Source: Acidobacteriota bacterium
GTDB taxonomy: Bacteria > Acidobacteriota > UBA6911
Length of the DNA: 64,000 nucleotides
Assembly: GCA_963664705.1 (NCBI GenBank)
Contig: OY761556.1
Span: 5,024,001-5,088,000 of the forward strand
Direction: 5' to 3'
Every line of letters starts with the position of its first letter. Within the stretch, counting starts at the first letter, position 1. The notes below the pieces were generated by a model. The model worked only from the letters and a program-made list of their open reading frames with translations, made no database searches and was not told where the DNA came from. Shown piece after piece: positions 1-5,745 of this stretch. The position numbers were made by a program, and so were the translations under genes.

Positions 1-171
1 GAAGCACCTAGTCAATATAAAAGGCCGCTATTCTCATTTTTCATCATGGGAAATGGAATCATAGGAATGGTCTATTTTACTTTTGCGGCATTCATGATTG
101 CAGGCATAAGCTGTCTCGTCATCTCTCTTTGTATTAACCCCCTTTTTAGGAAATTTCTGCATCGATCCTGA
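1..171 (+). CDS. 3' end of a small membrane protein (partial)
   Basis: Frame 1 is open from the window start: EAPSQYKRPLFSFFIMGNGIIGMVYFTFAAFMIAGISCLVISLCINPLFRKFLHRS*; hydrophobic; TGA at 169-171. Confidence 0.55.
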   Translation, partial: EAPSQYKRPLFSFFIMGNGIIGMVYFTFAAFMIAGISCLVISLCINPLFRKFLHRS

Positions 172-299
172 TATTGCAGGACTGAGAGACCGTGCCACAT
201 TCAAATCGACCGAAAGGCACTGTGAGATAGGGTTATAGGCTTAGAATGCAGTACTGAAGGCGGTAATTACCATTTTGGCGTTATCTCCCACAATGGGAC

Positions 300-312
300 A
301 TAACCGGCCAAT
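300..312. repeat. Left terminal inverted repeat of the recombinase element
   Basis: ATAACCGGCCAAT, exact reverse complement of 3730-3742. Confidence 0.8.
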
Positions 313-324
313 CTCTGCCCGTTT

Positions 325-1461
325 TTAGGCTCTGCGGAGTTTGCCCGCCTCTATGATTATTTTGGTAAGGCGATTGGAGAGCCGGTTGAGGCATTTGCGT
401 TCAGCACTAATCGGCAGCCCTCGCCGAAACATCTCCATTGCACGTTGAGTTGCGTGCAATGAATCGATTACCCCATCTAAACCAGTTCGAATCGGATCCG
501 ACGTTCTCGGCTGAGGGACTAAATGTCGAGGTTTTGAATGAGCCAGTTGAAACTCTCTCTGAAGATCCTTCAAGGCCACTTCGATATAGAGCATTGTCAT
601 ATTCGGAGAAGTGTGGCCGAGTAATTTCATCAGCACAGGAAAACTGACGCCGGAGCGAAGCATCTCCGTGGCATAGGTATGGCGAAACTGGTGTGGAACG
701 ATGCGAGTGGAGATTTCGAGAGAATAACAAACTTCATGCAGATAATCGCGAAGGCCACGAACGAGCGCGTACTTGGTGCTGGGCCGCGCCAGAAGTCGAC
801 CATCAGGAGGACACGGATCTAGGAAACGAAAGAATCGCAAGCGTTGGATAATCGCGACTATCGACGAATCCACCGGGACCATCCGTTCCGTTTTGAGTTT
901 GCCAAGTGGTACGTGAATGGCCCACTGGCGGAGACCAGTCGAGCGGAGGCAATCGACGGGCAAATCGGCGCACTCGCCAATACGCATGCCGGTATGGCGG
1001 AGGAGCAGAAAGACATTCGATCCTAGATCGTTGCGCTTGACGAACTCCTTCTGCAGAAGCTGATCCTGTTCGGCGGTGAGCGGACGTGCAAGTCTATGCG
1101 GGCGGCGCGGAATATCTTCACGACGAATCAGGTGGGCAACTTGAGGAAGCTGTTTGGTCCACGCCAGTTCTATGAACAGAGGGCGCAAAGCAATGAGCTT
1201 ACCAATATAGGTAGATGTGGCGAGCGGAGGCGTCTGGGCGCGCAAGTGGGACATCCAGCCGAGGAGGTGTGGCTCCCGCCGCAGTTGATCTAGGGCGTTT
1301 ACCTCCGGGTAGTTGGTGCCGAGATAACTAAGGAAGTTACGTACGGTCCCGCGATATTGGACATGGCTTGCAGAGCCGAGTGCAGTGCAGAGCGAATCGA
1401 CCGCGCGATCAAAGAGATCCACCAGTGGATGTGAGAGGGGAGGACGCCAGGAGCGTTTCAT
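325..1461 (-). CDS. Tyrosine-type recombinase/integrase with C-terminal extension
   Basis: Catalytic motifs HTGMRIGE, GKLKTER, HQFRH, LLGH, MTMLY. Confidence 0.93.
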   Translation of the reverse strand: MKRSWRPPLSHPLVDLFDRAVDSLCTALGSASHVQYRGTVRNFLSYLGTNYPEVNALDQLRREPHLLGWMSHLRAQTPPLATSTYIGKLIALRPLFIELAWTKQLPQVAHLIRREDIPRRPHRLARPLTAEQDQLLQKEFVKRNDLGSNVFLLLRHTGMRIGECADLPVDCLRSTGLRQWAIHVPLGKLKTERMVPVDSSIVAIIQRLRFFRFLDPCPPDGRLLARPSTKYALVRGLRDYLHEVCYSLEISTRIVPHQFRHTYATEMLRSGVSFPVLMKLLGHTSPNMTMLYIEVALKDLQREFQLAHSKPRHLVPQPRTSDPIRTGLDGVIDSLHATQRAMEMFRRGLPISAERKCLNRLSNRLTKIIIEAGKLRRA

Positions 1462-2504
1462 GAAGGAAGCCTCGGAAGGGGGCGGACTTGCAGCGCTACT
1501 GCGCGCGTATACTGCTGGTAAACGTCTTGTGGTGTGATCTGCACATAATGCAGGGTCGTCTGGATATCGGAATGCCCCATCAACTGCATAAGTGCCGGCA
1601 GGCTGATTCCGGCGCGTATCATATCGGAAGCGAATGTGTGCCGGAAGCGATGTGGGTGAGCAAGCGGAATGCCAGTGTGCTTGCGATGGTAACGGAACAA
1701 TGACCGCAGTCCGGCCAGAGTCATACGGAACCCGCGGGCCGGTCCCTTGAGCGAGACGAAAAGCGCAGCGGTGGCAACCTGGGGTCGTTCCCTCCGCCGA
1801 TAGTGGTCGAGGAGTTGCACTGTCTCCGGCGCCAGTGGCAGTAAGCGTATTTTGTTACCCTTGCCGCGTACGCGCAGCTGCGCTTCGGAGAGCAACAAGT
1901 CGTCCTCATTCAGCCCCAACACTTCGGCCGAGCGAAGCCCTTGAAGAAGCATTACTCCTACGAGAGCCAAATCGCGAGCCGTACGGAAACTGGACCAAAA
2001 ACGCGCCACCTCGTCCACCGAAAGCGGAACAAGTTGGCGTTTGGGCACTTTCACTCGCAGCCGGCTTATGGCTAGGCGCCGACGGCCTAGGCCCAGCGGT
2101 CCACGCCGCAAATAAACATGTTGGAAGCCCTGTGCCATGGACGATGGGGAGTCGGGGAACTGGTTGCGAAGAGCACGATCGGCAACGCCAACACGGTGAT
2201 TGATTGTGTAACTGGAAATCGGGGGTTGGTGGTTACACTGGAACTTCAGATAATCCTGGAGAGTCGATTCGGTCAGGTCGGCTGTGCAAACCTCAGCGGT
2301 GTGATGAAGACTCTCCCACCAGCGAACAAAATGTAGCAGGTAGTAAGCCCATGCTCGCAGAGTAGTATCCGCCAACCGACGGACATACTCGTGATCAAGG
2401 TAGCGATTGATCCAGCCAACCTCCTGACCGGTTTCTTGCTCGACCACACGAACCGGGCTTTGTGCTGTGTTGCGAATCTGCGGGCGAATCACACAAAATT
2501 TCAT
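1458..2504 (-). CDS. Tyrosine-type recombinase/integrase (XerD-like)
   Basis: QGLRSAE, RGKGNK, HRFRH, LMGH, TTLHY; start MKFCV at 2504 with GGAG upstream; ATGA overlap with the next recombinase. Confidence 0.93.
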   Translation of the reverse strand: MKFCVIRPQIRNTAQSPVRVVEQETGQEVGWINRYLDHEYVRRLADTTLRAWAYYLLHFVRWWESLHHTAEVCTADLTESTLQDYLKFQCNHQPPISSYTINHRVGVADRALRNQFPDSPSSMAQGFQHVYLRRGPLGLGRRRLAISRLRVKVPKRQLVPLSVDEVARFWSSFRTARDLALVGVMLLQGLRSAEVLGLNEDDLLLSEAQLRVRGKGNKIRLLPLAPETVQLLDHYRRRERPQVATAALFVSLKGPARGFRMTLAGLRSLFRYHRKHTGIPLAHPHRFRHTFASDMIRAGISLPALMQLMGHSDIQTTLHYVQITPQDVYQQYTRAVALQVRPLPRLPS

Positions 2505-2541
2505 AGCTGAGCCAAGCTCCAGAAAAGAATGTGTATCAGAG

Positions 2542-4255: not shown

Positions 4256-4362
4256 TCAGAGTAGTATGCAACCTGTTAGCAAAATTTTTCCGCCGCAATG
4301 CGTATGACGGCCATCCTGGAAAGTTAAACCGGCGTAGAACTATGCGTTGCGGCAACAATTTA

Positions 4363-4402
4363 CATTCTGGCGTTATCTCCCAGATCGCGACTTTCGGGAG
4401 TC
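4363..4402 (+). repeat. Empty copy of the element's target site (imperfect palindrome)
   Basis: CATTCTGGCGTTATCTCCCAGA-TCGCGAC-TTTCGGGAGTC; the first 20 bp match 271-290 at 19/20. Confidence 0.65.
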
Positions 4403-4434
4403 TCATCGCCTGACGGCACAGAATTAACGTTGCA

Positions 4435-5022
4435 TTACTCGGTTTGGCATGGACTATTTTCCTGGCGAGTTTCGGATAAGCGTATGACCTTTCCTGCAGT
4501 GCTGATGCTATAGCAAACGGCGAACTCATTGCCCCCAGGAACGTACCGGTCGAAATGGCCGTTTCGCCTGACAATGATTTCGTCTTTGTTAATCCAACGC
4601 AAGCCATTGATGTAGTGATGGCTATTCTTTTCAAAGTGACGGTCTTTAGGAAATTTCTTATCTAGCAGTGCCCCAATATCCAAATGTCGATTTTGCGCAG
4701 GAAAGTATAAGTACGCCGATGCTTCATTGCTGGCGAAGTCGTCATTCAGGAAAAACGCACTACCGGCTGGTGCCCAGCCGATTCGAACTGTGCGCACTAC
4801 ATCCATAAGCAGCTTCTGTTGACGCGTGCTGTTGTTCACCAGCCAGAGCCTTCGGTCGCATTCTGAGTTAGGCTGACAATCATTCATATTGAGCCGAAAG
4901 GATTTGTCAGGTGATACACGGCTGCCATCTCCAATTGGGAAATCGGCAAATGGCGATTGACCGAAAACCCAAGGACAAGAAAGGAACAAAACAATTAGCG
5001 TATAACGAATCAGCTTTAGCAT
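4435..5022 (-). CDS. Hypothetical secreted protein (beta-rich, SPD motif)
   Basis: Signal-peptide-like N-terminus, 195 aa. Confidence 0.7.
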   Translation of the reverse strand: MLKLIRYTLIVLFLSCPWVFGQSPFADFPIGDGSRVSPDKSFRLNMNDCQPNSECDRRLWLVNNSTRQQKLLMDVVRTVRIGWAPAGSAFFLNDDFASNEASAYLYFPAQNRHLDIGALLDKKFPKDRHFEKNSHHYINGLRWINKDEIIVRRNGHFDRYVPGGNEFAVCYSISTAGKVIRLSETRQENSPCQTE

Positions 5023-5048
5023 AACGCGTTAATTATCGTCCCTCAATT

Positions 5049-5459
5049 CTACAGCTTCAATGCCAAGGTATCTGAGTAAAGACCGAAAAACGGCACTCGA
5101 TTCAATAGCGGAATTATGCCGCATCTATTGTGATATGAAAAGGATAGACCAATTCGGGCCATAAACGGCATTCCAGGAAATAGCAGTGTCGATACCCCTA
5201 CAAAATGGCATTCATCTCTGGGCCGAATAGTAAATAACTCGAGATGGTGACAAGCGGCGCACTCCAGCCCATAGGCATAATATGGATCTCGGTGGAATCC
5301 ATGACTCCTCATGATGTCATACCTCTTGAATGCCTTGCCTCCGCAATGTGAACAGGTGACTGTTTTGTCCGCCGCCTTGAACGGTTTCGGCTCATCCTTT
5401 TGAGCCCAACTACTAATTGCAGCGCGAACCCCTCGACCAAGAGCTTTGATTGTGCTCAT
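5049..5459 (-). CDS. Zn-ribbon protein
   Basis: CSHCGG...LECAACHHLELF; GGAGG upstream; C-terminal tail may be spurious. Confidence 0.6.
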   Translation of the reverse strand: MSTIKALGRGVRAAISSWAQKDEPKPFKAADKTVTCSHCGGKAFKRYDIMRSHGFHRDPYYAYGLECAACHHLELFTIRPRDECHFVGVSTLLFPGMPFMARIGLSFSYHNRCGIIPLLNRVPFFGLYSDTLALKL

Positions 5460-5745
5460 CGAGGCAACCCTCCCATGATAACTGCGCCAATCAAACTGAA
5501 AAATATATTCTACATTCTAGAAAGAGAGTTCAGAGGTTATTCCCCTGATACGGCCTTCGAGGAGATCTGACGTGCAGGTAAGCTCATGACGCTTCGCAAC
5601 AATGCAGATCGAGAAGGATGAGCGGCCGATAGCGGGCTGTTTCGAACAGTGCTTTCTGCTCTCCCCTCAGTTGATTGGCACATCCGAGGGTTGTTTTGCA
5701 GAATCCAATTCCTGATCTGTTGTTTGCAGTTTACCTATTGGGGAG

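Follow-up and report, generated by a model that had tools for sequence, protein, structure and literature searches.

Candidate gene cassette arrays with dif-related sites and a linked recombinase in Acidobacteriota

The left end of the window (the whole stretch analyzed, 64,000 nt of contig OY761556.1, assembly GCA_963664705.1, positions 5,024,001 to 5,088,000) holds short, unrelated genes between copies of a repeated palindromic site. The locus raises the question of whether these genes form a gene-capture array and, if so, which enzyme recombines the sites. An earlier note on this DNA had proposed such an array, with its own tyrosine recombinase type of site, distinct from both attC and canonical dif. 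The analysis supports this proposal with two amendments: given its dif geometry and one arm that is similar to the XerC arm of the host dif, the site is, on sequence grounds, dif-related, and the candidate recombinase lies in the middle of arrays in relatives instead of at the edge of this one. We consider it probable that the window contains the right end of a cassette array, and that a dedicated Xer-like tyrosine recombinase, central in the arrays of relatives and missing here, recombines its 28-bp two-arm sites.

Sites, cargo and an inserted element

All three sites claimed by the earlier note are present and form a single family, although their borders needed correction (Table 1). The site is 28 bp long and has the 11-6-11 layout of dif (two 11-bp arms and a 6-bp spacer), so that of the 6- to 7-bp spacer originally described the 6-bp version stands and the 7-bp version does not. 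Two other readings were dropped in favor of the symmetric one, a 12-7-12 core and a dif with a 5-bp spacer made up of the accessory box and the left arm. Conservation around the sites is confined to the 28 bp and the optional accessory box, which is XerD-like and occurs at 61 of 233 sites in the genus. A dedicated enzyme leaves both the XerC-like left arm and this box, present at a quarter of the sites, unexplained.

Table 1. Features at the left end of the window (positions within the window)
Feature	Position	Strand	Remarks
3′ end of membrane-protein ORF	1–171	+	cargo; flanked by site 1 and the upstream site at genome 5023586
Accessory box of site 1	265–275	+	resembles XerD arm of host dif; 7 bp before left arm
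Site 1, left arm and spacer	283–299 (arm 283–293, spacer 294–299)	+	GAC class
Twin tyrosine-recombinase element	300–3749	−	3.45 kb, within site 1
Element recombinase B	325–1461	−	378 aa; PF00589
Element recombinase A	1458–2504	−	348 aa from the start most homologues use; PF00589; ORF open to 2579
Small element ORF	2542–2859	−	helix-turn-helix match weak, below cut-off
Site 1, right arm	3750–3760	+	
Cargo ORF	3851–4255	+	hydrophobic protein of 134 aa, in no Pfam or NCBIfam family
Accessory box of site 2	4357–4367	+	XerD-arm-like
Site 2	4375–4402	+	GAC class; intact 11-6-11; 22.6 bits
Cargo ORF	4435–5022	−	195 aa, likely secreted
Cargo ORF, Zn-ribbon-like	5049–5459	−	136 aa
Fourth site, weaker	5154–5181	−	CGT class; 14.9 bits; within the called 5049–5459 ORF
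Terminal site	5539–5566	−	CGT class; faces GAC sites; right end of array; 20.9 bits

Site 1 is split by the element and scores 32.5 bits once the element is removed in silico. The third copy had been called weaker, which is true of the plus strand (4.6 bits with our first, genome-only matrix, a chance level); on the minus strand the genus-trained matrix gives it 20.9 bits, and it carries the second spacer class. That first matrix (37 bp, from the host genome alone) missed sites lacking the box and was replaced by the genus-trained matrix of 30 columns. The fourth site has its spacer, right arm and right flank in common with genome G010, and the left flanks differ.

The ORFs listed by the earlier note were recovered as given, except that the first represents the 3′ part of a longer ORF starting upstream and the Zn-ribbon ORF is probably overextended. 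All three homologues of the Zn-ribbon protein are only 79–90 aa long and cover only its first 57–59%, so the rest of the ORF is probably read-through of a site. The likely secreted protein ORF has a DNA homologue (73% identity) in a different context in G005. No site was found near that homologue (best score 4.9 bits), which counts against the gene-capture reading.

The inserted element has 13-bp terminal inverted repeats (300–312 and 3730–3742) and its own 7-bp core (3743–3749). It is present in four genomic copies, with a read depth of about fourfold, and because all four split a site, we call it a parasite of the sites; the suggestion that it uses the site as a landing pad was thus borne out. 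A 250-bp derivative and the copy in G018 likewise lie within sites. As far as Tn554-like and RIT transposons are described in PMC3414803, the element, but not the array, shares with them a length of ~3.5 kb, tandem tyrosine recombinases, terminal inverted repeats and occurrence in several copies; here, however, there are two recombinases of ordinary length, and no TnpC-like protein or third recombinase was identified in the element.

Scanning the upstream contig and the whole genome, as the earlier note had suggested, revealed further sites at genome positions 5021041, 5022057 and 5023586, and hence the array continues leftwards from the window. In total, 49 sites score >17 bits in the host genome, compared with one in a shuffled copy. 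Their distribution is not random, as 43 of the 49 have a neighbor within 10 kb (6.3 expected, maximum of 20 in 2000 draws), with arrays at 2.9, 5.0, 5.6, 5.9 and 6.7 Mb. The small genes are not syntenic in relatives, where conserved synteny would, according to the earlier note, have spoken against an array. The genus-trained matrix detected 233 sites across 18 genomes of the genus. A strict site pattern occurs in 18 of 50 genomes of the family and in 1 of 394 outside it. An exact-pattern scan of a collection of genome contigs returned three loci, one of them unrelated, and there were no hits for the site in viral contigs and no Rfam match at gathering level.

Spacer classes and exchange of flanks

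The spacers fall into two classes, one ending in GAC and the other in CGT or TGT. Sites of the GAC class are direct repeats in 112 of 126 adjacent pairs, and CGT/TGT sites face GAC sites in 46 of 49. When two sites have a flank in common, the homology ends at the last triplet of the spacer (21 one-sided pairs). Specifically, among 22 non-element pairs with a common 40-nt flank, nine share the left flank only and 12 the right flank only, representing nine and six independent groups, respectively, and the sole pair sharing both is an intragenic paralogue pair. The control for flank sharing gave 0 of 51,529.

Segments between sites have a median length of 0.94 kb, and 61 of 118 contain one gene. 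An 835-bp segment shared by G003 and G017 (86% identity) begins at the GAC of one site and ends with the right arm of the site that follows, and a 1301-bp segment is present twice in G014. Relative to the sites, genes occur in both orientations (125 versus 67), and the cargo includes toxin–antitoxin genes and genes of unknown function.

The linked recombinase and competing explanations

The earlier note had suggested looking for a dedicated recombinase at the array edge. None is present there or elsewhere in the host genome (no trace by tblastn or blastn). In relatives, an unclassified tyrosine recombinase stands at the center of mirrored site arrays, with sites on both sides of its gene at distances from 8 bp to several kb. 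Sites lie within 1.5 kb at 14 of 19 recombinase loci, compared with 0 of 37 Xer control loci and 5 of 50 loci of other recombinases; the training set of the genus matrix is in part made up of loci that include recombinase neighborhoods (G014, G024, G334 and G023). Of 33 GAC-class sites, 32 are directed away from the gene, and five of seven CGT-class sites are directed towards it, giving the layout CGT-in, GAC-out, recombinase, GAC-out, CGT-in.

The protein (313 aa, PF00589, intact in G312 at L405:7039-7980) is of the simple type, with the full catalytic set (R161, K188, H258, R261, H284 and Y293) and no arm-binding domain. It scores below the cut-offs for XerC, XerD, XerA and XerS and falls into a clade of its own. 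The IntI insertion is missing, the K-to-H distance being 70, versus 106 in an IntI of G016. Many copies are broken by stops or frameshifts. At the level of genomes the association is weak: the gene was found in 8 of 21 site-bearing genomes of the genus, and not in the other 13, versus 0 of 9 without sites (Fisher p = 0.067, with related genomes not independent). The 239-aa protein that usually neighbors the recombinase stands at C1:6405696 of the host genome without the recombinase. Given the absence of the gene, the arrays of the host genome look orphaned. Two other candidate enzymes were rejected: IS91-linked SAM_4 integrases lie near some sites, but have separate ends and only a stub in the host genome, and phage-type integrases by two clusters are part of integrated elements.

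From the sequence patterns, we infer that the linked enzyme recombines the sites. It would bind both arms, and a cassette would leave or enter as a double-stranded circle with one site. Only the strand pair adjoining the right arm would be exchanged; with exchange limited in this way, three bases of identity should be enough, and GAC and CGT sites should not react with each other. Replication would then resolve the junction, and arrays would extend outwards on either side of the recombinase gene. Segments between facing GAC and CGT sites would not be excised as circles, and would stay or move by double exchange. The arrays of the host genome would be orphans, comparable to integron clusters without an integrase, and landing pads for the twin-recombinase element.

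It is unlikely, in our judgment, that host XerC, alone or with XerD, recombines the sites, in which case the arrays would be divergent chromosomal dif-module islands and the linked recombinase a passenger or helper. The 11-6-11 geometry fits this explanation, as does the finding that XerC and XerD are the only tyrosine recombinases common to all six site-rich genomes compared. Left arms resemble the XerC arm of the host dif (mean 6.3/11; median of −1.7 on the XerC-arm matrix, versus −27 for random sequence), the accessory box scores −2.0 on the XerD-arm matrix (versus −29.7), and XerC–XerD repeats of the canonical type also occur in the genus. However, no array site passes the XerC–XerD matrix (best 9.5 bits in either orientation, versus 39.1 for dif), the right arm is not XerD-like (median of −14.5), and most sites have other bases in place of the inner ATAA of dif, whereas dif itself is near-invariant in the genus. 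Site polarity is centered on the other recombinase, Xer loci are without sites, and 9 of 30 genomes have XerC/D yet no sites. The true dif of the host lies at C1:2036985, beside xerD and at the skew maximum near 2.0 Mb; the array sites are not single-copy at the terminus, as a dif for chromosome dimer resolution would be.

A further explanation, to which we give little credence, is that the twin recombinases of the element, or relatives of them, made the cassettes and move them in trans, leaving the sites as footprints. The element, its derivative and the G018 copy do all lie in sites, and the element obeys the triplet rule, in that target and core end in the same three bases in 24 of the 25 metagenomic copies that include both ends. 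Yet only 2 of 29 other genomes of the genus encode a relative of its recombinases (G018, and G334 at 48%), and G014, G333, G017, G005, G024 and G007 have 10–20 sites without one. Targets in other hosts are degenerate, mostly below zero on the site matrix, excision restores one site without multiplying it, and the element ends have a symmetric core of 7 bp, not 6 bp. Still less probable is a role of the repeat in protein binding or regulation, as a motif marking variable regions that turn over by ordinary insertion and deletion. This would suit the lower GC content of the arrays (45–50%, versus 53%) and their richness in IS elements. It would also suit the lack of circles in the contigs of three read runs, in which no cassette-skipping or element-skipping joints were found either; contigs drop rare forms, two of the runs are from one sample, probably the source, and only the array of this stretch was covered (barely so in raw-read run X6). 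Against this explanation, homology breaks from either direction at a fixed triplet within the site, genes occur in both orientations, and two spacer classes with strict polarity suit strand exchange rather than regulation.

Known systems and wider distribution

The linked, dedicated recombinase that we favor can be compared with that of integrons, which have a single attI with a Pc promoter beside the integrase gene and whose attC sites have the motif RYYYAAC...GTTRRRY within a long imperfect palindrome and a conserved triplet at the crossover. Like integrons and integrase-less clusters, the arrays string together short, unrelated genes, usually a single gene per unit, between directly repeated sites, with bounded cassettes common to different genomes, similar types of cargo, a recombinase gene that is linked to the array or lost, and a triplet at the crossover. 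Unlike integrons, they have no attC hairpin or core motifs (the motifs occur at 1 of 233 sites, versus 7 of 3000 random places), and no IntI was found in the host genome (best TIGR02249 score of 87.6 bits, cut-off 265; the linked recombinase scores 47.6 bits). Genes on either strand, two spacer classes and a recombinase gene with arrays to its left and right also set them apart.

pdif modules, as covered in PMC12907356 and PMC6449649, including the dif-module islands of Acinetobacter, likewise have 28-bp sites with two 11-bp arms and a 6-bp spacer (the definition in PMC6449649) in linear arrays of modules with one or a few genes, are both chromosomal and plasmid-borne, and are targeted by other mobile elements. 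According to these sources, C/D and D/C sites made up of XerC and XerD arms alternate around the modules, which depend on the host Xer proteins. In contrast, sites of the same class are direct repeats here, inversion being typical only between spacer classes, the core has no XerD arm in either orientation, and a separate recombinase lies inside the array. The predicted chemistry is similar to that described in PMC4246890 for IMEX phage VGJ, a reversible exchange of one strand on double-stranded DNA that is followed by replication and needs identity on one side of the spacer only. IMEX, as portrayed there, use host XerC/D at a single dif, whereas here there are many non-dif sites and likely an own enzyme. 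Our literature search, to which subscription journals contributed little and supplements nothing, found no description of such a system.

If this reading is correct, abundant uncultured Acidobacteriota gather and shuffle accessory genes by a system invisible to integron and pdif finders, and part of the environmental cassette pool is therefore unmapped; the 28-bp site would provide a primer and search handle for it. The ordered assembly and exchange of cassettes would also gain a compact tool, since one small recombinase would work on short sites of two non-interchangeable classes and need only three bases to match. More broadly, we lean slightly towards the view that bacteria have a third widespread platform for gene capture in addition to integrons and dif modules. 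In it, a dedicated Xer-like family would build mirrored arrays outwards from its own gene with 28-bp double-stranded sites, the last spacer triplet would encode an address, with GAC standing for growth and CGT for borders, and a large family of transposons would land by the same code.

At E ≤ 1e-50, the linked-recombinase family numbers at least 7960 proteins in the database. No site lies near 5 of the 19 loci within the Acidobacteriota family, nor near homologues in G146, G145, G340 and G342 (loci of 6–10 kb) and at four viral loci. Outside the family, homologues with 61–66% identity are accompanied by related sites in G442, G292, G361 and G123, with the same spacer endings and different arms, and a palindrome scan at such loci gave 11 real hits, versus 2.5 in shuffled sequence (maximum 7). 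Plasmid pACIX905 (NC_015060.1) of Granulicella tundricola MP5ACTX9 likewise carries such a homologue, WP_013573308.1, and five related sites, all five with the same polarity, and since this strain is cultured, the model is directly testable.

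The 28-bp site and its relation to dif and attC

The genome is a single contig of 6.89 Mb, and a repeat finder run on the window (C1:5024001-5088000) recovered repeats at 265-299 and 4357-4391. A matrix seeded with 16 copies converged to 33 sites in this genome and gave no site above 25 bits in the shuffled genome. Sites without the accessory box (see below) and sites of relatives were then added. The resulting 30-column matrix detected 233 sites in 18 genomes and none in the same loci after shuffling (1.26 Mb); the loci behind the 233 sites were fetched on earlier matches and were therefore selected rather than sampled at random. 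Applied to this genome, the matrix gave 49 matches above 17 bits (one in a shuffled copy). The earlier note had described a repeated site between small genes, which we confirm, and had suggested a scan for clustering: 43 of the 49 matches have a neighbor within 10 kb, against 6.3 expected. All three of its sites belong to the family.

The symmetric core is 11-6-11. The left arm reads RYTTCCYMSAW, and the right arm begins with TTC and is roughly its reverse complement. The first three spacer bases vary among the 233 sites; the last three are GAC in 187, CGT in 21, TGT in 8 and other triplets in 17, and we refer to GAC-class and CGT-class (CGT/TGT) sites accordingly. Of the 233 sites, 61 also carry, 7 bp ahead of the left arm, an 11-bp accessory box that resembles the XerD arm of the host dif.

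The site is neither attC nor canonical dif, as had been proposed. The host XerC arm matches the left arms at a mean of 6.3 of 11 positions, and no site passed an XerC-XerD matrix (best 9.5 bits, dif 39.1). The true dif adjoins xerD at the GC-skew maximum, far from the window, and is near-invariant throughout the genus. Core motifs of attC are not enriched (1/233 sites, 7/3000 random places), no IntI was found in this genome, and no Rfam family matched at gathering level. One genome of the genus without array sites encodes an integron-type integrase.

A second repeat type occurs in several relatives: canonical XerC-XerD 28-mers whose left and right flanks are both identical. They lie in variable regions, many to a genome, and several begin near GTTC, resembling IS91 ends. 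These repeats may represent a miniature element or true dif modules.

Sites and other features (G000, this genome; other G numbers, genomes of relatives; L, loci; C, contigs)
Feature	Position	Remark
Site 1	window 283-299 + 3750-3760	split by element
Site 2	window 4375-4402
Third site	window 5539-5566	minus strand
Isolated matrix match	window 28192-28221	18.4 bits, no neighbors; may be chance
S41 peptidase with PDZ domain	window 5746-7098	just outside array
TonB-dependent receptor-like gene	window 7406-11761	just outside array
Site clusters (30-column matrix)	this genome, 2.91-2.94, 5.02-5.03, 5.61-5.63, 5.87-5.90, 6.71 Mb
True dif	G000:C1:2036985-2037012 (L301)
Sites with part of spacer deleted	G000:C1:5884030, 5887798, 5894139; L330:3985	as after faulty exchange
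250-bp element derivative	G000:C1:2937480-2937729 (L032)	non-coding
IS91-linked SAM_4 integrase stub	G000:C1:5018114-5018230 (L046)	just upstream of window's array
239-aa protein	L405:6173-6892	beside linked recombinase
239-aa neighbor-type protein	G000:C1:6405696-6406346	without linked recombinase
Canonical XerC-XerD 28-mers	G014:C7:656753-678439, C6:508547-516412 (L316-L318); G013 (L319-L323); G024, G007 (L324-L327)
Integron-type integrase	G016:C76 (L282)

A sequence model places clustered sites in 20 of 29 other genomes of the genus. A strict pattern matched 18 of 50 family genomes, spread over 5 of 11 genera, and, elsewhere in the phylum, 1 of 394 genomes; many of the genomes searched are fragmented, and no match in them does not equate to absence of sites. 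The reversed pattern had no match in family genomes.

Array order and exchange at the last spacer triplet

Among adjacent sites less than 6 kb apart, GAC-GAC neighbors are direct in 112 of 126 pairs and mixed-class neighbors inverted in 46 of 49. The median length of the 118 direct segments is 0.94 kb. By our own simple gene caller, 61 contain one ORF, 26 two, 18 three or more and 13 none, and 125 ORFs run with the site direction and 67 against it. A Pfam scan of 51 cargo ORFs of this genome plus one homologue (52 proteins) left 30 without a match at 1e-6; among the matches were BrnT and HigB toxins, HTH regulators and DUFs.

We compared flanks between sites, counting pairs with at least 70% of a 40-nt flank in common and leaving out 10 pairs caused by the element. 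The left flank alone is shared by 9 pairs and the right alone by 12 (9 and 6 independent groups). Both are shared by one pair, an intragenic paralogue pair, and the left-versus-right control gave 0 of 51,529. Near-identical left-sharing pairs keep the spacer and differ in the right arm, and right-sharing pairs differ in the first three spacer bases; the switch therefore lies at the last triplet. G003 and G017 share, at 86% identity, an 835-bp segment that extends from one site's GAC as far as the right arm of the following site, and G014 holds a 1301-bp segment twice. In line with the gene capture proposed earlier, a DNA search of 50 family genomes recovered only single genes of the window, in other contexts, without synteny. 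Against exchange at sites, however, G005 has a homologue of ORF 4435-5022 without a nearby site, and a MarR-oxidase pair is repeated in this genome with ends that are not at sites.

A recombinase linked to the sites in relatives

Among the tyrosine recombinases of 11 genomes compared, only XerC and XerD are common to all site-rich ones. When the positions of sites and recombinases were compared in five additional family genomes, one recombinase family was seen to adjoin the sites. Its intact member in G312 (313 aa, PF00589) has a complete catalytic set, lacks the IntI insertion and scores below the XerC, XerD, XerA, XerS and IntI cut-offs. The closest solved relatives by sequence are XerA and XerD, and in a tree of 30 rows, whose branches are long, the recombinase family forms its own clade (support 100/100). 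It occurs, often broken, in 19 of 50 family genomes at an identity of at least 60%. A site lies within 1.5 kb at 14 of 19 of these loci, compared with 5 of 50 other recombinase loci and 0 of 37 controls, which were chosen as XerC/XerD and include a few other simple recombinases; some of the recombinase neighborhoods were in the matrix training set and most were outside it. Of the GAC-class sites within 5 kb on either side, 32 of 33 are directed away from the gene, and of the CGT-class sites 5 of 7 are directed towards it, with near variants counted in the classes. In several genomes a divergent gene beside it encodes a 239-aa protein with weak MarR-like and nucleotidyltransferase-like signals.

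Homologues occur in 10 of 394 genomes outside the family. Within 10 kb, four of six examined (G442, G292, G361, G123) carry related sites whose spacers end alike and whose arms differ; G146 and G145 have none. The Granulicella tundricola conjugative plasmid NC_015060.1 encodes a 63% homologue, with two GAC sites pointing away from it and three CGT sites towards it.

Neither tblastn nor blastn found this gene in the present genome, and the dedicated recombinase for which the earlier note had suggested a search at the array edge is missing. The 5.6-Mb array keeps a mirrored layout, and its central 126-aa gene is 51% identical to a recombinase-adjoining gene in G351, as would be expected had the recombinase been lost from that center. 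Across the genus, 8 of 21 site-bearing and 0 of 9 site-free genomes have it (p = 0.067), a weak genome-level link. The SAM_4 integrase stub near the window's array has its end at a weak site of the CGT class, and in L244 and L441 IS91-type ends likewise adjoin sites.

Possible mechanism and the twin-recombinase element

The system resembles integrons in its direct cassette repeats and a recombinase that is linked or lost, and dif in the shape of its sites, but it fails the defining tests of both. A literature search found no description of it; excerpts of PMC12907356, PMC6449649, PMC3025954, PMC3414803, PMC4246890, PMC8138268 and 10.1101/542381 served for comparison with known systems. The earlier reading of a gene-capture array with its own tyrosine-recombinase site is supported and extended: we consider it likely that this cassette array, with its 28-bp sites, is recombined by the dedicated enzyme of relatives, whose gene is missing here. 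The linked recombinase would bind the sites and cassettes would be circular double-stranded DNA. Exchange of a single strand next to the right arm would account both for a spacer with just three fixed bases and for the lack of mixing between the classes. The junction might be completed by replication, as a review describes for VGJ phage (PMC4246890), and the accessory box leaves room for a part played by XerD. Contigs of three runs held no cassette circles or empty junctions, which is weak evidence either way.

The 3.45-kb twin-recombinase element does not account for the arrays, since it has no relative in six genomes that contain 10-20 sites. It is instead a parasite of the sites. The landing-pad role suggested earlier holds for all four copies in the genome, each inside a GAC site, and with the element removed in silico the restored sites score 29.9-35.9 bits. 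The recombinases of the element belong to a large family, with 4157 of 7999 scored proteins reaching 1e-40. Targets are degenerate in 80 metagenomic loci, but target and element core end in the same three bases in 24 of the 25 distinct metagenomic copies that have both ends. The 250-bp derivative lies inside a CGT-class site, and G005 and G333 hold similar remnants. Element relatives at L178, L183 (G334) and L063 (G311) have the same terminal repeats and a third, primase-like ORF.
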